Shown here piece by piece: positions 1,459 through 41,470 of a stretch of DNA of 42,920 nucleotides. The stretch is from IMG/VR virus record IMGVR_UViG_2541047955_000001, positions 1 through 42,920 of that record; one strand, given 5' to 3'. A program made the position numbers and the translations under genes. The DNA comes from a virus. Taxonomy: Duplodnaviria > Heunggongvirae > Uroviricota > Caudoviricetes. The notes beneath the pieces are model-generated. The model had not been told where the DNA came from and did no database searches. It saw only the letters and a program-made list of their open reading frames with translations. Positions within the stretch are counted from its first letter, which is position 1; every line of letters begins with the position of its first letter.

Positions 1459-2619
1459 TTACCGCACATTTAAGTAAACCACGTTCTCCTCTTGTGCCGT
1501 ATTTGTGCCATTGCGACTTATAATCGCATCGATTTTGCTCGCGTGCTCGGTGAGATGCCCGGCTGAAAGGTGAGCGTATCTTTGAACCATTTCGAGAGTT
1601 TCCCATCCCCCCATCTCTTTAAGTGCAAGAAGAGAGACTCCGGACTGAACCAGCCAGCTTGCCCAGGTGTGTCTCAGGTCATGGAATCGGAAGTTGCTAA
1701 TGCCTGCCCGCTTTAACGCTCCCTTCCATGCTTTGTTGCTATCGGTTCTCATCTTCCTTACCGCAGCTGTTTTTGTTCCGTCGCTTCGGTAGGCAGGTTT
1801 GGTGTGGACAAATACCCATCTCTTATGGAGCCCCTGCTGTTTTCTTAATATCTGGCATGCGGTTTCGTTAAGAGGAACTCCGATCGCATTGCCAGCTTTT
1901 GTTTCATCAGGGTGCATCCATGCCATTTTCTTATCCAGATCGACCTGTGACCACTCAAGGTCTGTAACGTTGGAACGGCGAAGGCCTGTCGTGATTGCAA
2001 ACATGACCACAGGGAAGAAATGAGGAGCAATTTCTGCAAACAGGCGCTTCGATTCCTCCTCTGTAAGCCATCTGATTCGTCCATTCTTAACGCGTGGTGT
2101 TGATATTTTGGGTGCCCTGTCAAGCCATCCCCATTCAACAGCCATATTGAGAATAGCACGAAGTATTGCCAGATGCCGCGTCTTCGTTCCTTTGCTTGCC
2201 AGCTTTGGTTTATACTCCGGCACTGGCTTGCCAAGCCGCAAACACCTGTCCCGGCTCATTTCCCAGTTCAGGCGATGGCGGCGGTTTTCCATCCCGTCTA
2301 CCGCCTCCATTATTTTTTCTGTTGTTATGTCAGAGAGAATGGTTTCTCTGAAGTGCAACATCCAGAACGATATAATGCTCTTGTCATCATCAATGGACTT
2401 CTTATCCGCTTTCTCACGCAGCCACCGTATGCAGGCTTCCTTGAATAGCTTTTTCGGTGATTCCCCGAGATTTTTTACTCTCCACGCTTCTGCTTTCAGA
2501 CGATCGTGAAGTTCTTGCGCTTGCCTTTTGTCCGATGTTTCAAGAGAGCGTCTAACTCTTGATCCATCTGGCGCGACGAAATCGCAGTGCCACGTGCCAC
2601 CGCGTAGTTTGATTGACAT
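1459..2619 (-). CDS. int: tyrosine integrase, P22 Int type
   Basis: 386 aa; C-terminal HDLRHTWASWLVQSGV...YAHL catalytic region; N-terminus resembles P22 Int; adjacent to tRNA 3' end. Confidence 0.95.
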   Translation of the reverse strand: MSIKLRGGTWHCDFVAPDGSRVRRSLETSDKRQAQELHDRLKAEAWRVKNLGESPKKLFKEACIRWLREKADKKSIDDDKSIISFWMLHFRETILSDITTEKIMEAVDGMENRRHRLNWEMSRDRCLRLGKPVPEYKPKLASKGTKTRHLAILRAILNMAVEWGWLDRAPKISTPRVKNGRIRWLTEEESKRLFAEIAPHFFPVVMFAITTGLRRSNVTDLEWSQVDLDKKMAWMHPDETKAGNAIGVPLNETACQILRKQQGLHKRWVFVHTKPAYRSDGTKTAAVRKMRTDSNKAWKGALKRAGISNFRFHDLRHTWASWLVQSGVSLLALKEMGGWETLEMVQRYAHLSAGHLTEHASKIDAIISRNGTNTAQEENVVYLNVR

Positions 2620-18105: not shown

Positions 18106-18180
18106 GGGTCAGTCGTATAAAGGTCATTACGGAAGGCTGTTAACCTTCTTATCGTGGTTCGAGTCCACGCTGTCCCGCCA
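18106..18180 (+). tRNA. tRNA-like, Asn (GUU) anticodon, imperfect stems
   Basis: 75 nt ending CCA; anticodon stem GAAGG/CCTTC, loop CTGTTAA; T-loop TTCGAGT; one T-T mismatch in acceptor and D stems. Confidence 0.45.
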
Positions 18181-18185
18181 AATAT

Positions 18186-18261
18186 GCTGGTTTAGCTCCA
18201 ATGGTAGAGCGGTCGCCTTGTAAGCGAATGGGTAGCGGTTCAAGTCCGTTAACCAGCACCA
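18186..18261 (+). tRNA. tRNA-Thr (UGU)
   Basis: 76 nt; 7-bp acceptor stem GCTGGTT/AACCAGC; D stem GCTC/GAGC; anticodon loop CTTGTAA; T-loop TTCAAGT; 3' CCA. Confidence 0.6.
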
Positions 18262-35097: not shown

Positions 35098-35147
35098 TGA
35101 GTAGCCACTCCTTAGTTTTGAGCAGAACACCGGATGATAATGTTTTG

Positions 35148-35399
35148 TTATGTGTCTTTTGGGATTCTATCCAGTAACTCGTTGGAAATTTTATCAAGTA
35201 AAGATTTTATTTGTTTAAGATCTAATGATTTGTCTACTGATGAGACGTCAGATGATAACGCATCCTCAAGAATTTGAACTATCTCTGAGTTCATAGATCG
35301 ACCGTTTCGTTTAGCCCTTTCCGCAATAGCACTACGCATGCCGTCAGGCATTCTAACCGTAAATCTTTCTATGAAATTTGATTCGTCTTTTTCTGACAT
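35148..35399 (-). CDS. ribbon-helix-helix regulator (Arc/Mnt superfamily)
   Basis: 83 aa from internal Met; FTVRMPDGMRSAIAERAKRNGRSMNSEIVQILEDAL is a typical RHH core. Confidence 0.6.
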   Translation of the reverse strand: MSEKDESNFIERFTVRMPDGMRSAIAERAKRNGRSMNSEIVQILEDALSSDVSSVDKSLDLKQIKSLLDKISNELLDRIPKDT

Positions 35400-35439
35400 T
35401 TTCTTATTCGCAAGGCATATGAGCAATAAAAAACACAGT

Positions 35440-35505
35440 AGCATCATATTGACATTATGAGCAATGGCATCATAATGGTGTCATGACATCATGGTGATGT
35501 CATTA
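35440..35505. promoter_or_regulatory. divergent promoter/operator of immI-like region
   Basis: TTGACA-17 nt-ATAATG overlapping the near-palindrome ATGGTGTCATGACATCAT (GTCATGAC core). Confidence 0.4.
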
Positions 35506-35519
35506 TGACGGAGATATTG

Positions 35520-35696
35520 ATGATGAGCGATGTTCTTTACAGTGGTCGTAAAAGTCAGAGTTTCCAGCTTCGTTTGCCAGCGCGAATGAAGGAGGAGATC
35601 AGACGCGTAGCTGAAATGGATGGAATTTCTATCAACTCTGCGATTGTGCAGCGACTGGCTAAAAGCCTGAGAGAGGAAAGAGCTAATGCCCAGTAA
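35520..35696 (+). CDS. Arc-like ribbon-helix-helix repressor
   Basis: Track ORF 35505-35696; start at ATGATG after GGAGA; FQLRLPARMKEEIRRVAEMDGISINSAIVQRL RHH core. Confidence 0.6.
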   Translation: MMSDVLYSGRKSQSFQLRLPARMKEEIRRVAEMDGISINSAIVQRLAKSLREERANAQ

Positions 35697-35769
35697 AAAT
35701 AGTGAAGCCCGGAAGTGCGCGAACACAAACCGGGCCTCTATGTCAGTAACCGTACTCAAGGAAACTAAC

Positions 35770-36408
35770 ATGAATATTGTAGCAAAATCAGATTATAACT
35801 TCCAAGGATTCACTTTTAACCCTGTAACAGAGGGCGGGTCTATCTGGTTTACCTCCACCGAACTAGCTAAGGCTCTCGGCTATAAAAAAACTGATGCCAT
35901 CAGCCAAATTTATGCCCGTAATGCTGACGAATTTTCCGACTCAATGTCATTGACCCTCAATATGAAGGTCAACGGAATAAACAATAGCTTACGTAACAAA
36001 TCGGTCAGAGTTTACTCACTCCGAGGCGCTCACTTGGTGGCGATGTTTGCTTCTACGCCCAAGGCCAAAGAGTTCCGCCGCTGGGTGCTGGATATTTTGG
36101 ATCGGCAGGCAGAATGCTCACCGATTGCAAAACAGTTTACTGACGAAGAACTGGTTAATCTCTGCTACTTACAATTGTGGATGGAGAAGAGTCAACAAAT
36201 GTGCAAACACATCTACCCTGGAATGAAGCAAATTGGTTCTGAGCTTTCAGGAAAGATTTACGATATTGCATATGAGACTCGCTACATGTCAGAAGAAACC
36301 AAGAAATCGCTTCTTCGTGAAATGAAGAATCTTGATCCCAACAATTTTGTCGTAAAGAACGCTCAGCCAATGCTGGCAAAACTTCGCGGCGAGGAATGGA
36401 TTCATTGA
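35770..36408 (+). CDS. Bro-N domain antirepressor-like protein
   Basis: Track ORF 35686-36408; start at MNIVAKS with AAGGA RBS; Bro-N signature FNPVTEGGSIWFTSTELAKALGY...RVYSLRGAHLVAMFASTPKAKEFRRWVLD. Confidence 0.7.
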   Translation: MNIVAKSDYNFQGFTFNPVTEGGSIWFTSTELAKALGYKKTDAISQIYARNADEFSDSMSLTLNMKVNGINNSLRNKSVRVYSLRGAHLVAMFASTPKAKEFRRWVLDILDRQAECSPIAKQFTDEELVNLCYLQLWMEKSQQMCKHIYPGMKQIGSELSGKIYDIAYETRYMSEETKKSLLREMKNLDPNNFVVKNAQPMLAKLRGEEWIH

Positions 36409-36495
36409 TTGGTGCACAGGACGGCGCAAAAGAAAACCGCCAGTGTGCTGCTGGCGGCCTATGTCACACCCTTACTACCACATAAGGAATGCCTA

Positions 36496-37224
36496 ATGAC
36501 TTTTAAGAATGTAGCAAACATCGGATCCGTTGTCACGGATAAAACCATTGATAGCCAGTACCTGTTAGAGATGGTCAATCATGCTCGTAGACAGTGCGGG
36601 GAAAAAGAAGTTCGCAATAACGACTTTATTGCACGCATTAAGGATGAACTTGAAGGTGAGCACTACGAAATTTTCGTAGTTCAAAAATCAAACAAGACAA
36701 CTTCTGAAAAAGTTGTTATGTCAATTAAGCAAGCCCTTCGAGTGGCTGCTCGTGAATCTAAAGCTGTTCGCCGCTCACTTGTAGACCAACTTGAAAGTAT
36801 GCAAGAAGCGCACATTAAAAGCGGTAAATCGTCGAGTGGACTTGTTGAGTATCGCCAGGCGCGAACACTGAAAATGACGGTTGAAGCTGTTACCAATCTG
36901 TTCGATCTGATGCCAAATCTTGCGCCTGAGGCAAAGCAGACAGCGGCAGCAAGTATAATCAACCCGCTCGTTGGTTTTAATGCAATACCTCTTCCGGCAA
37001 TAGAAGAGCATTACTACTCAGCAGGGGAGGTTGCAGAGCAGCTTGGAGTAACGGCCAACAAGATTGGTCGCATTGCTAACGCAAACAACCTCAAAACTGA
37101 GCAGTACGGGAAGTTCTTCCTGGATAAATCTGCGCATTCCAGCAAACAGGTGGAAGCATTCCGCTACAATGCGGAAGGTGTTAAAGCACTACAACACCTG
37201 ATTCATGGGAGTAATGTTGCATAA
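36496..37224 (+). CDS. antirepressor-like protein with KilAC-type C-terminal region
   Basis: Track ORF 36409-37224; start at MTFKNV with AAGGA RBS; C-terminal YSAGEVAEQLGVTANKIGRIANANNLKTEQYGKFF. Confidence 0.5.
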   Translation: MTFKNVANIGSVVTDKTIDSQYLLEMVNHARRQCGEKEVRNNDFIARIKDELEGEHYEIFVVQKSNKTTSEKVVMSIKQALRVAARESKAVRRSLVDQLESMQEAHIKSGKSSSGLVEYRQARTLKMTVEAVTNLFDLMPNLAPEAKQTAAASIINPLVGFNAIPLPAIEEHYYSAGEVAEQLGVTANKIGRIANANNLKTEQYGKFFLDKSAHSSKQVEAFRYNAEGVKALQHLIHGSNVA

Positions 37225-37445
37225 TGGCAAAGAAAAAATATGGCATTATGCCTCCAAGAATCAAAGGAAGAGCCAGGGTAAAAGGCGATGCTGGAAGGTA
37301 TCACATTCTTGGAGTTCTGTGGCATGAGAGAGCTTTAATTTTAAGTAGACCTCATGGGTACATTGAAAAGGTATCTATAGATAGAGTAGAGATTCTTCCC
37401 CTTACACCTGAAGAAGAAGAAACGTACGGACTTTTTGATAACTAA
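37224..37445 (+). CDS. hypothetical protein
   Basis: 73-aa ORF, translationally coupled to the upstream gene (TAATG), followed by a terminator. Confidence 0.45.
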   Translation: MAKKKYGIMPPRIKGRARVKGDAGRYHILGVLWHERALILSRPHGYIEKVSIDRVEILPLTPEEEETYGLFDN

Positions 37446-37452
37446 CCAACTA

Positions 37453-37480
37453 AACCCGCTTAATCGCGGGTTTTTTCTTT
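37453..37480 (+). terminator. intrinsic terminator ending the arc–ant-like operon
   Basis: Hairpin CCCGC-ttaatc-GCGGG followed by TTTTTTCTTTT. Confidence 0.5.
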
Positions 37481-37717
37481 TCTAAGGATATCAGCCGCAA
37501 CTTCTTTTACTCGTTCCGAGATTAATGAGGCCAGCCTCTCTTCTTCATCACGATACCCGCTTACAGGTGATGGTTTGGAGAGTGATTCTTCCATCGTAGC
37601 CACAATTTCGGAATTGATAGACCTGTTATTCATTTTTGCACGCTGTTTAATCTTGGCGTGCAACTCGTGCGTAAGCCTCAAGTGGAACTGCGCCTCATCG
37701 TATTTGCTGTACATCAT
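37460..37717 (-). CDS. Mnt-like ribbon-helix-helix repressor
   Basis: Track ORF 37460-37798; start at ATGATG after GGTGAGG; NRSINSEIVATMEESLSKPSPVSGYRDEEERLA resembles P22 Mnt as recalled. Confidence 0.65.
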   Translation of the reverse strand: MMYSKYDEAQFHLRLTHELHAKIKQRAKMNNRSINSEIVATMEESLSKPSPVSGYRDEEERLASLISERVKEVAADILRKEKTRD

Positions 37718-37859
37718 CAATGCCTCACCAAATGGGTGGAATGGCATCGTAAAACCTACTGTACAAATCAACAATCGTACCATTTCGGTATGTAACAAAT
37801 ACCAACCGTAGCCATGCTGCGGCGATTCCTTGTATCTGGAGCAAATTAAATGACAGACA

Positions 37860-38360
37860 TTACCTACTCAACAGATGGTCAGCAACCATGTTTGCTGCCT
37901 TATAAGCTATAGCCGCTTCATCAATGGTGTTGAATCTCCCAAGGGTTATGTTTTTACCTGAGACATTTATCTGAGCTTGCCATTGATTTCTGGCTTGACA
38001 GAAAGTTACCCCCTTGATTCCAGCATTGCTATTTCGAGGTCCGACATTTAATGCATTTACGACTCTGCTGACATCCCTAAGGTTTGAGATTGCGTTATTT
38101 CTTCTGTTTCTATCAATGTGGTCAATCTCTTGTTTGGGCCATTCGCCATATACATACAGCCAGGCAAGTCTATGTGCAAAATATCTTACGCCATCAATAT
38201 TAATTGCGTTATATCCATAAGAAATTGTGCCAGCAACTTTCCCAACAGCACCTCTGGCGCTTAATTTCTTTTTCCAAGTGAAAATTCCTGTTTCTTTATT
38301 GTAATCGAGAACCTCCATAAGGCGCTCCCGAGTTACTACCTCGTGACGTCTCTTACTCAT
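37860..38360 (-). CDS. HNH endonuclease with AP2-type DNA-binding domain
   Basis: Track ORF 37860-38402; start at MSKRRH after GGAGA; HNH motif [27 protein letters not shown]; C-terminal AP2-like [27 protein letters not shown]. Confidence 0.75.
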
Positions 38361-38373
38361 TATTTTCTCCGGA

Positions 38374-41088
38374 ATGTTTATTATGCCAGAACAATTATAC
38401 AACGTTGTTGTTTCACAACCAAGTCAGTTATTTACTTTAGCTCGCTCGTTTAAAGCAAATGCCAATGGCAAAATTTATATCGGTAAAATTGACACTGACC
38501 CTGTAAATCCTGAAAACCAGATTCAGGTTTATGTGGAGAACGAAGACGGTTCTCACGTTCCTGTTTCGCAACCAATAATCATTAACGCTGCCGGATATCC
38601 GGTATATAACGGACAGATTGCCAAATTCGTAACCGTGCAAGGCCATTCTATGGCTGTTTACGATGCTTATGGCACTCAGCAGTTTTATTTTCCAAATGTA
38701 TTAAAATACGATCCAGATCAGTTTGGCCCAGACTTCAAAGAGCAGTTATCTCAATCAGGAGCATACATTAATGATGATTCAAAAGGTGATGCATTAATTG
38801 GGGTAAGGCAGCCATTTACCGGGGCTGCAACTATAACTCAGCATGAAAACAATGCTCTTTTCTTAAATGTAAAACAATTTGGAGCAATTGGGGATGGGAA
38901 ATATCATCCATTATCTGAGTGGTTTTCTTCAATTTCTGAAGCAAAATCCTTATATCCTTTTGTTGACTCATTATCTCAGTCAATAGACTGGGCCGCGTGG
39001 CAAGCTGCCCTTAACACAGGAAAGGTTATTTATGGTACTGATAATGCGTATGTAATAACGGATACGTTAACACCTGTTTCTGGTGGTGGGATAATTTGTC
39101 TTGGTGTGGGCAAATGGGTCTCAGGATATACTGCAACATTTGCTCCTGATATTACCACAGGGACCACATTCCTGATGTACGGGGTAGGAAATAAAAAATA
39201 TACTGTAGATTGTGTTTCTAATATGGATGTTAGTGGTGGTGTGGTTTCTAACCCATCTTCCGAAGACCCGTATACAACAACGGCACCTGCGTCATCATAT
39301 GATTTATTGGATTTTACTAACGGTGATGCTAATGGGACTACAAGAGCCACGCTTAAACCATTCTCTGCCGCAATATTGATGCCTGAGACAGGATGTGTTC
39401 GCCTTGAGAACTTTCGTGTTGTTCCATATTTCAATGGGCTGGATGGTTATAAAGACATTGCAAATACCGGTCTTGGCGATGAGTGGGATGTAGGTATTTG
39501 GTCACGTGCGTCTTTTGGCAATGAATACCGCAATTTGCAGGTGGTTGGATACTGGCGCAAGACGGCACTTTTAAAAACGAACATTCCTGTATCTGGCACG
39601 CTGGCCGCTCAGGGCGAGGATGAAAACTATTATCACTGTAGATTCCAAGGATTCAAGGGTATTTCGATCCGCGCCCATGATGTATTCCGAATTACAGCGG
39701 TAACGTCCAGCACTATCGAAATACCATGGTCAGCAAGCCACACCTTCGAAACGTCCGGGGTTTTAAGATCTGGAGGCAGGAATTTCACTTATTCAGGATT
39801 ATCCGTATCCGGTGATAAGTTAGTATTTACTGGAGTGTCTAACGCTTCTGAGGCAACAGTAGGTTCTACTATACGGCGAAATGACATAGATAACTTTGGT
39901 ATGGCGGGAACGCAATTTTTCGATTGCTACATTACCAGCCTGTATCACCACACACATCTGCTTGCCACATCGCAATACCTGTCTCAACCATTCAGCCGAC
40001 CATCAGAGTGTATGGAGGTTTCAGGGGAACCAGTTCGCGGTGTACAGGTACATGCAGGAACCATTCAGGGATGGGATGATGTTCTTATTCATCTACATGA
40101 CTGTGGAAATATGAACTTTTACAGTACATATTTCGAAAGCCAGCAAGCATATGTAACTATAAATGGTGGTAATGCTATTGGTTATGGAGCACGTATGATA
40201 GCTTCCCGGCAATCAACAAGCTCATTACCATATGCAGCAGGGAATACTCGAGTGCTTAGAATGGTCGGGTGCTCTGAAGGCAATGGCGTTGACTGGGGTC
40301 CTGTATTTAACAACTATACAGGAGGAAGATATAATTCCGGAGACGGTGTATTTAACCCCCGCGATGCATTTATAGACCATAAATCTCTTCCTGAGCAGTC
40401 AGGAGGTGAGTCAAGACTCGTATCACAAAAAGGAAATGCCAGAGTAGTATGTGGTGTTGGTAAAACTGTACTGCTTGGACCAACGTCAGGAGATTGTAAT
40501 TTACAGAGTAATACTGGAAGTTTAAATATTAGAAGTGGGATAAGAGTAAGAATCGGTCACGCTGATGGAACAGACTGGTGGTTGGCAGATGCTAATAAAA
40601 TAGCTCCTGTTGATGATAATGTTAAAGCCATTGGACAGCCATCAAACAGATGCTCTGTTATTTATGCAGGAACCGGGTCAATCAATACATCAGATGAAAC
40701 TCTTAAAACAAGATATGATATTCTTAATGCAGAGCGTGATGCCGCTATTGAAATAAAGTCAGTCATCTATAAATTTAAATTTAATGACTCAATTAATAAC
40801 AAAGGAATTGAGTCGTCCAGGTATCATTTTGGCGTTGGCGCTCAAACCGTAGGGGATATTCTTAGAAAGCATGGTTTAAACCCTGAGCAATATGCTTTTT
40901 GGTGTTACGATGAATGGCCTGACGTATGGGATGAAGAGGTGATAACTGAAGAGAGCACAGATCCTGATACAGGTGAGAAAATTTATTCTCAATATAAAAC
41001 AGGAGATATGATTCTTGTAAAAAAAGCAGGAGGACGCTACGGAATTCGTTATGACGAATTGGCTATGTTTATATTAATGGCAATGTAG
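38374..41088 (+). CDS. tailspike: P22/Sf6-type head-binding domain, beta-helix depolymerase, C-terminal S74 chaperone domain
   Basis: 904 aa; conserved N-terminal head-binding region; FGAIGDGK beta-helix start motif; C-terminal SDETLK...[10 protein letters not shown]74 signature; true start may be ATG at 38383. Confidence 0.9.
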
Positions 41089-41106
41089 TTGCAATAAATG
41101 CAGTAT

Positions 41107-41137
41107 ATCCCGCATAAAAAATGCGGGATTGTTTTTA
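41107..41137 (+). terminator. intrinsic terminator after the tailspike
   Basis: Hairpin ATCCCGCAT-aaaaa-ATGCGGGAT followed by TGTTTTTAT. Confidence 0.6.
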
Positions 41138-41422
41138 TCTGGTGTATTTATGAATTTTAAGTAAATTTTAGTATTGATTACTGCATCGCAGTTAAAGCCT
41201 CATTACCTATGAGGTAAAACTGAGACACACAAGGCTTTGCACTGGATTGCAAGGCTTTGTGCTCTTCTATGCTGGGTGGCTACATGTTTGAAGATCGTTG
41301 TGCCGTATTTGTGACATACACATGACAACATCATGCATCAACTTTCTGTTTGTGCCATCAACTATTGCTTGGTGAATGCGGTTAATGCTTGCTAAAACAG
41401 ATAGTTATGATTGGTGCTACAG

Positions 41423-41470
41423 ATTCGTAATGCGAAGGTCGTAGGTTCGACTCCTATTATCGGCACCATT
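41423..41470. other. attR core (displaced 3' fragment of thrW)
   Basis: 48-bp exact copy of thrW 3' portion 1399-1446; no 5' tRNA half present. Confidence 0.85.

Follow-up and report, generated by a model that had tools for sequence, protein, structure and literature searches.

A free-standing HNH-AP2 endonuclease gene lodged in the tailspike start of P22-like prophages and its likely homing

How does a nuclease gene come to stand head to head with the tailspike gene of a P22-like prophage, and what could it do there? The question is raised by the window, i.e. the whole stretch of 42,920 nucleotides that was analysed (IMG/VR virus record IMGVR_UViG_2541047955_000001, positions 1 to 42,920), in which an HNH endonuclease gene and the tailspike gene diverge from closely spaced start codons. 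The head-binding domain of the tailspike is the textbook junction for host-range module swaps in P22-like phages. A nuclease lineage at the 5′ edge of this junction would be a testable local source of DNA breaks. The analysis covered the anatomy of the locus, its distribution among related prophages and the readings that compete to explain it.

The HNH-AP2 gene and its prophage setting

The window holds a complete P22-like prophage of ~40 kb (Table 1). The att repeats place it in tRNA-Thr(CGT), adjoining an aldehyde-dehydrogenase-family gene (1-1254). Beyond its right end lies an N-terminal integrase fragment of 112 aa with the Arm-DNA-bind_3 domain only (41623-41961), which an earlier island at this tRNA presumably left behind. 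Phage-borne genes for tRNA-Asn(GTT) and tRNA-Thr(TGT) are present inside the prophage at 18106-18261. An immI-like region separates the DNA-injection genes from the tailspike gene; this region (35148-37750) is unusually rich, with three Arc-family genes and two antirepressor-like genes. The tailspike protein opens with a Head_binding domain (Pfam E 4e-64, 38383-38721), continues into the receptor-binding module and ends in a Peptidase_S74 intramolecular chaperone domain (Pfam). No Pfam match was obtained for the central receptor-binding part. At residues ~735-832 (40585-40880) an endosialidase-type stalk fragment is followed by Peptidase_S74, as in K1-specific phages, e.g. CUS-3.

Table 1. Coordinates of the prophage features and of the elements around the tailspike start in the window.
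Feature	Coordinates	Strand	Remarks
Direct repeat, 48 bp	1399-1446 and 41423-41470		Prophage bounds; first copy is the 3′ part of tRNA-Thr(CGT)
Integrase gene	1459-2619	-	
Arc-family gene	35148-35447	-	
Arc-family gene	35505-35696	+	
Antirepressor-like gene	35686-36408		Bro-N/P22_AR_C
Antirepressor-like gene	36409-37224		phrog_1726
Conserved 73-aa ORF	37224-37445		Function unassigned
Arc-family gene	37460-37750	-	
Boundary sequence (left homology arm)	37805-37837	+	Annotated bsq1 in CUS-3; precedes the tailspike gene in HNH-free P22-like phages
Orphaned ancestral tailspike start	37838-37863	+	SD GGAG 37838-37841, ATG 37850-37852, codons 2-5 ACA GAC ATT AC
Orphan 20-codon ORF	37850-37912	+	Opened by the stranded tailspike ATG; antisense to the HNH 3′ end
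HNH-AP2 gene, 166 aa	37860-38360	-	ATG at 38360, TAA stop 37862-37860
Spacer between the divergent start codons, 22 bp	38361-38382		Holds palindrome TCCGGA 38368-38373
Cassette-linked tailspike 5′ end	38383-38460	+	New start and first ~26 codons; tight linkage with HNH
Tailspike gene, 901 aa	38383-41088	+	Pfam; right end of prophage
Predicted sigma-70 promoter of HNH	38394-38422	-	Antisense in tailspike codons 4-14

The HNH-AP2 ORF is a real gene and not a chance ORF. A ribosome-binding site, GGAG (plus-strand CTCC, 38367-38370), is positioned 6 nt upstream of its ATG; the start assigned by PGAP is sometimes an internal ATG, which gives a protein of 152 aa. The protein matches HNH_3 (PF13392) with 59.7 bits against a cutoff of 24.8 (E 2e-16, Pfam) and phrog_99, 'HNH endonuclease', with E 7e-63. 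The AP2 match in Pfam scores 27.6 bits and lies under the gathering score of 33.3; members of the same clade carry precomputed PF00847 (AP2) matches. A defence-system reading was set aside, as PADLOC gave only a weak match, to 'homing endonuclease' ('HEase').

An AlphaFold model of the protein was built on 76 homologues (mean pLDDT 88) and compared with known structures by Foldseek. Residues ~115-160 of the model superpose on the plant AP2 domains of TEM1 (7et4) and AtERF1 (1gcc) with an rmsd of 1.3-1.5 A over 42-51 columns (prob 1.0). At the level of the model, the C-terminal AP2 domain is confirmed by structure despite its sub-threshold Pfam score. The N-terminal sheet and HNH finger find their best PDB match in I-HmuI (1u3e; prob 1.0, 96 aligned columns). 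The model contains a beta-beta-alpha metal finger (strands 78-81 and 94-97, helix 99-105), and the 76-sequence alignment shows no or almost no variation at D80-H81, N93 and N105. A 166-aa HNH nuclease with an AP2 domain on the strand opposite to the tailspike, as proposed in a sequence-only reading of the locus, is thus borne out by Pfam, PHROG and the structure model.

A cassette within the first codons of the tailspike gene

The junction was compared with HNH-free relatives, viz. CUS-3, HK620 (start MTDSINAN) and the E. coli strains Z1323CEC0012 and DLL7555. The boundary sequence of the window aligns with that of all four at 95-98%. In HNH-free phages GGAGCAAATTAAATGACAGACATTACA runs uninterrupted into GCCAATGTG, and the joined string comprises the tailspike SD and the start MTDITANV. 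In the window, in Kapi1 (Escherichia phage vB_EcoP_Kapi1) and in E. coli AR_0058 the shared string stops at ATGACAGACATTAC (37838-37863) and is followed by the 3′ end of HNH. The HNH cassette of ~537 bp (37864-38400) interrupts the ancestral tailspike ORF, of which 4 2/3 codons remain to its left. The gene had earlier been placed upstream of the tailspike. It does adjoin the tailspike start, but it is actually inserted in the ancestral tailspike ORF and re-heads the tailspike.

Both edges of the insertion carry marks of the interrupted gene. An equivalent of the orphaned SD and ATG is retained in every HNH lineage examined. The stranded ATG opens a short ORF, of which the peptide is 8-48 aa in other lineages with conservation limited to the first 3-5 residues; to judge from these sequences the orphan 20-codon ORF is probably a by-product. 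The TAA stop of HNH is built from the stranded tailspike codons ATT-A, and loci with an alternative left flank have ATC-A at this place, so that HNH ends there in TGA. At its right edge the cassette provides the tailspike with a new start, ATG CCA GAA CAA TTA TAC (MPEQLY), and the protein begins MPEQLYN. Since MPEQLY replaces MTDITA residue for residue before the conserved NVVVS, the length of the tailspike is unchanged. For annotation, the insertion explains those Lederbergvirus tailspikes that start with MPEQLYN and not with MTDITAN, and also a seemingly good upstream ribosome-binding site and ATG that lead nowhere.

The two start codons are 22 bp apart, or 13 bp if an upstream in-frame ATG at 38374 is used, and the 'about 15 bp' given in the earlier reading was approximately right. 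The palindrome TCCGGA in this spacer reads GGAG for HNH and GGA, a weak SD, for the new tailspike start. The spacer element TCTCCGGAA is invariant across four aligned lineages. The SD of HNH is GGAG in 8 of 10 lineages (GGAA in L054, GGGG in L141), and the longer form CCGGAG is found in 6 of the 10.

An intron or intein was rejected, as the HNH gene is on the opposite strand to the tailspike gene and the tailspike has its own new start and the same length. A search for Rfam intron families in 37300-38800 found none. The opposite strand, the lack of an Rfam intron and the new tailspike start together indicate that the HNH gene is free-standing. From its domains and the structure model, the protein is of the HNH-AP2 type and belongs to the free-standing homing endonuclease class, and the earlier assignment to this type is supported.

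A sigma-70 promoter of HNH is predicted within the tailspike codons in antisense orientation. Its -10 element, TATAAT at 38399-38394 (antisense of tailspike codons 4-6, CAA TTA TAC), is separated by a 17-nt spacer from the -35 element TTGGTT at 38422-38417, and transcription is predicted to start ~27 nt before the HNH ATG. A generic sigma-70 scan returned no minus-strand promoter, because the -35 matches only 3/6; the conserved -10 was read by hand and then compared between lineages. Nine of 10 lineages have TATAAT or TATGAT and the remaining one has GATATT; A2 and T6 are present in 10/10. In every lineage the element lies upstream of the tailspike start codon (CAT on the minus strand) by a few nt, often with a TGn extension, and the overlapping tailspike residues vary (QLY, QSY, SII, TII, NII, NIT). 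HNH-free alleles have TGTAAT or TATTGA at the same position. The antisense TATAAT element is a probable promoter of HNH. Its presence inside the tailspike codons would explain part of why the first of these codons travel with HNH. Late transcription into the tailspike would run head-on to this promoter, which suggests that HNH is expressed mainly in lysogens or in early infection.

A different insert is seen at the same point in E. coli EC0026B (locus L005, 3464-3734). This AT-rich insert of ~270 bp follows ATGACAGATATTATA of the tailspike start, leaves an orphaned start and supplies the new start MPDITPNV; it is without an annotated gene, and a like pattern is found in phage JEP4. The longest in-frame upstream extension of the L005 tailspike begins MNRRLFFK, resembling a twin-arginine signal. 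The tailspike-start site may be a general insertion hot spot.

Presence, spread and the linked tailspike 5′ end

The 523-bp HNH segment was found in 15 of 5426 complete E. coli genomes, in one copy each and with at least 99.2% identity. The flanks, i.e. the boundary sequence and the head-binding domain, are present in 1142 of the 5426 genomes. HNH is carried by ~1.3% of the matching E. coli prophages and ~99% are without it. In AR_0058 the left arm is as in the window (99% over 35108-38724) and the site is filled; in Z1323CEC0012 the left arm is again as in the window (92.9%) and the site is empty. DLL7555 has the tailspike and right flank of the window (98.7% over 38431-42299), likewise with an empty site. 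Presence and absence are polymorphic at one exact site in collinear prophages, with empty sites for both flanks. The polymorphism which the sequence-only reading had proposed as a check was found (15/5426 genomes against 1142 with the flanks, and the empty sites of Z1323CEC0012 and DLL7555), and the gene is not universally present at this site.

HNH at a nucleotide identity of at least 99.0% occurs in 28 loci (RefSeq loci and IMG/VR contigs). The receptor-binding modules next to these loci fall into 18 clusters, and the left flanks are of at least five types. The fifth left flank, GF66.2, has only ~26 nt in common with the others (SD, ATG and first codons). The attachment sites of HNH-positive loci also differ (argW, the ybhB-bioA region, thrW). 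Identity of at least 99% over so many backgrounds points to recent spread, as far as sequence comparison can date it. In E. coli 30COLEC (L145, 1159-1611) HNH is shortened by ~16 codons at its 3′ end and joined to early-left genes (an ASCH-domain gene and integrase) in a deleted prophage; by its sequence this copy is an example of element decay. Clusters P0015 and P0004 hold further truncated copies.

Genes for relatives of the protein at 67-84% aa identity are likewise divergent from a Head_binding tailspike gene, at a distance of 21-34 bp, and each has an orphaned SD and ATG on the far side. They were found in prophages of E. coli, Salmonella, Citrobacter, Mixta calida and Serratia marcescens. 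Between lineages dN is 0.13-0.20. As dS is saturated in 5 of 6 pairs, a dN/dS value could be computed for a single pair (0.074). These substitution rates indicate strong purifying selection on the HNH protein. Outside Kapi1, no relative in the phage database exceeds 47% identity, and relatives at about 50% identity occupy unrelated sites in other phages. Relatives are encoded in 3209 phage records; many are annotated as homing endonucleases, often with several copies per genome. A scan of GTDB species representatives gave one clade member (Escherichia sp. ESNIH1) and two distant matches. The comparisons indicate that the enzyme has long been kept functional at one site while it is rare in any one host species.

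To follow the linkage of HNH into the tailspike, mean pairwise divergence was profiled for 20 unique HNH-positive and 60 unique HNH-free alleles of the head-binding domain. At tailspike nt 19-48 divergence is 1.3% among HNH-positive alleles, 14% among HNH-free alleles and 52% between the two classes. At nt 49-78 the values are 0%, 6.3% and 30%, respectively. From nt 79 onward they are about 3-23%, about 4-13% and about 4-18%, and the two classes are no longer differentiated; taken over all comparisons, the level is about 4-10%. The linkage tract extends on the right over tailspike nt 1-78 and on the left only to the orphaned start, and decays with distance. As linkage ends at ~nt 78, the travelling unit is ~600 bp (37864 to ~38460).

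The full 5′ allele is present in exactly the 15 HNH-positive complete genomes. From codon 7 on, it was also found without HNH in 2 of 67 HNH-free IMG/VR loci (L072 and L138) and in E. coli GF43. Since the allele exists without HNH, its divergence pre-exists or outlives the homing endonuclease gene (HEG), as an ancestor or a remnant. The claim that the diverged 5′ allele proves target-site immunity is weakened by these cases. The tract must also carry the predicted promoter, which again weakens an immunity reading of its divergence.

The first ~48 nt of the tailspike (38383-38430 in the window) vary more than any other part of the head-binding domain, in HNH-free phages too, where mean pairwise divergence is 14-32% in this stretch against 4-7% further in. 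Some HNH-free loci, namely L006 (HK620, from 2547), L013 (GF43, from 1481) and L072, have a second class of start, MTDSINAN, with one codon more than MTDITAN. Its nucleotides resemble the new starts of the Citrobacter and Salmonella HNH-positive lineages (MTDSIIAN, MSDSIIPN) with the antisense TATAAT destroyed. From this resemblance, the MTDSINAN starts could be scars of past HNH gene loss.

Homing, its rivals and comparison with known systems

From these population patterns we infer homing. The gene is likely to be a free-standing HNH-AP2 HEG of a lineage specialised for the first tailspike codons of P22-like (Lederbergvirus) phages. HNH-positive and HNH-free P22-like genomes would meet in one cell by co-infection, by superinfection of a lysogen or as co-resident prophages. 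The enzyme would nick or cut the uninterrupted tailspike-start sequence of the HNH-free genome, and repair from the HNH-positive genome would copy the cassette in with a short co-conversion tract, reaching on the left only to the orphaned start and on the right ~78 nt into the tailspike. The HNH-positive genome would be immune to its own enzyme, because the cassette splits the site and the adjoining 60-80 nt are deeply diverged. HNH would be transcribed from the promoter with its -10 antisense in tailspike codons 4-6, opposed by late transcription, with expression in the lysogen or in early infection. Several observations count against this proposal. The cassette could also be moved with no nuclease at work, by general homologous recombination through the flanking boundary sequence and head-binding domain, and the HNH-linked 5′ allele is rarely also seen without HNH. 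The strict scan gave no minus-strand promoter and the -35 is weak in the window. With ~1.3% of matching E. coli prophages occupied, the element is not sweeping.

If recombination between the flanks were sufficient, the gene would be a passive passenger that no longer homes, or never did so here, and owes its spread to lying between two highly recombinogenic conserved sequences, on the left the boundary sequence with the tailspike start and on the right the head-binding domain. HNH-free prophages are indeed equally mosaic on both sides and divergence past nt 79 is equal in all classes; the gene is rare (15/1142) and some copies are truncated (30COLEC, clusters P0015 and P0004). However, a dN/dS of ~0.07 with saturated dS indicates long-term selection on the protein, and the catalytic residues are invariant. 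Left homology down to ~26 nt is a poor substrate for unassisted homologous recombination. Moreover, identity of at least 99% over 18 receptor-binding backgrounds, against 5-20% divergence in the adjacent head-binding domain, suggests recent active spread. Passive spread is therefore unlikely as an account of the locus. The main role of the enzyme could instead lie in competition, the nuclease of a lysogen cutting the tailspike start of incoming HNH-free P22-like phages with homing as a side effect. The immI region of P22-like phages keeps lysogen-expressed genes such as mnt and sieA, and the HNH gene is in this neighbourhood. Its predicted promoter looks constitutive and is opposed to late transcription, and the weak PADLOC match is to 'HEase'. 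Nuclease-mediated marker exclusion is known for the HEGs of T4 and provides a precedent. The rarity of the gene speaks against a strong benefit of this sort, and the Kapi1 paper reports no such phenotype. Exclusion as the main role is improbable, though it is compatible with homing and the two are not mutually exclusive.

A domesticated regulator, in which AP2 would bind near the tailspike start and regulate the tailspike or immI with the nuclease irrelevant, would suit the presence of an AP2 fold and the position of the gene immediately beside the translation start of the tailspike. The strict conservation of the HNH catalytic residues and the absence of the gene from ~99% of related prophages make this very improbable; we know of no regulator of this kind in P22-like phages. 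An extension of the homing proposal, which we consider speculative and doubtful, would regard HNH and the first ~26 tailspike codons as a co-adapted unit in an arms race, in which the prophage nuclease cuts the common 5′ allele of relatives, with both exclusion and conversion as results. It would explain why the head-binding domain, otherwise conserved, has two 5′ alleles ~40% apart over its first ~80 nt, why the 5′ 48 nt are the most variable even in HNH-free phages, and why MTDSINAN starts resemble scars of HEG loss. If it holds and the promoter is antisense as predicted, expression of the HEG and late transcription of the tailspike would be mutually antagonistic.

It is plausible that HNH promoted module exchange here, as the sequence-only reading suggested, but the receptor-module junction (~38721) is ~340 bp away and linkage decays by ~nt 79. 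The stronger statement that HNH drives receptor-module swapping was rejected, since the divergence profile gives it no support and HNH-positive and HNH-free alleles are equally mosaic past nt 79. By analogy, the module-exchange idea agrees with what is generally described for nuclease genes at exchange boundaries (PMC10448857).

The locus offers a simple natural system for the measurement of homing and co-conversion in temperate phages. To our knowledge, what is currently known of homing comes almost entirely from lytic T4-like phages. Kapi1 can be cultivated, and empty sites are available in HK620, CUS-3 and Sf6.

The closest known counterpart is Kapi1 itself. The protein encoded by Kapi1_066 is 100% identical, with the same junctions and the same tailspike 5′ allele; Kapi1 differs in an antirepressor gene on the left and in its receptor-binding module. 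Kapi1_066 is annotated just as 'HNH endonuclease' and is not mentioned in the Kapi1 paper. The HNH of the epsilon34 paper is a different one, in the early-left operon. In the literature searched, no description was found of this site-specific lineage or of an insertion into the tailspike start.

I-HmuI of Bacillus phage SPO1 (1u3e) is a nicking enzyme. It has a like N-terminal and HNH fold, the DH...N...N catalytic pattern is common to both proteins, and a weak sequence match extends over the HNH motif. I-HmuI differs in being intron-encoded and in ending in helical/HTH DNA-binding modules, whereas the window protein is free-standing, on the opposite strand, and ends in AP2. HNH-AP2 homing endonucleases are an established family in phages, cyanobacteria and ciliates (Magnani et al. 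2004, as cited in PMC10448857). Members of this family, including the 'IPA-HNH' genes of ICP1, have the same domain order (N-terminal HNH, C-terminal AP2) and are likewise phage-borne and free-standing. The family is described mostly in lytic phages (T4-like, T5-like, Felix O1, ICP1), whereas the lineage of the window keeps to one site in temperate P22-like prophages.

Nuclease genes have been noted at boundaries of genetic exchange (Barth et al. 2023, PMC10448857). Such genes and the seg and mob HEGs of T-even phages resemble the present one in standing at an essential structural gene, in presence polymorphism, in a short linked tract and in a mosaic boundary. The seg and mob genes of T4 are located between intact genes and their products cut a neighbour, whereas the cassette of the window splits the start of its host gene and supplies a new one. 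Unlike at T4 seg and mob, the predicted promoter of the HEG in the window overlaps the first codons of the host gene. The general concepts are unchanged, as free-standing HNH-AP2 homing endonucleases and the association of nuclease genes with exchange boundaries were already described; the kind is known, and what is new here is an HNH-AP2 lineage lodged in the tailspike start.
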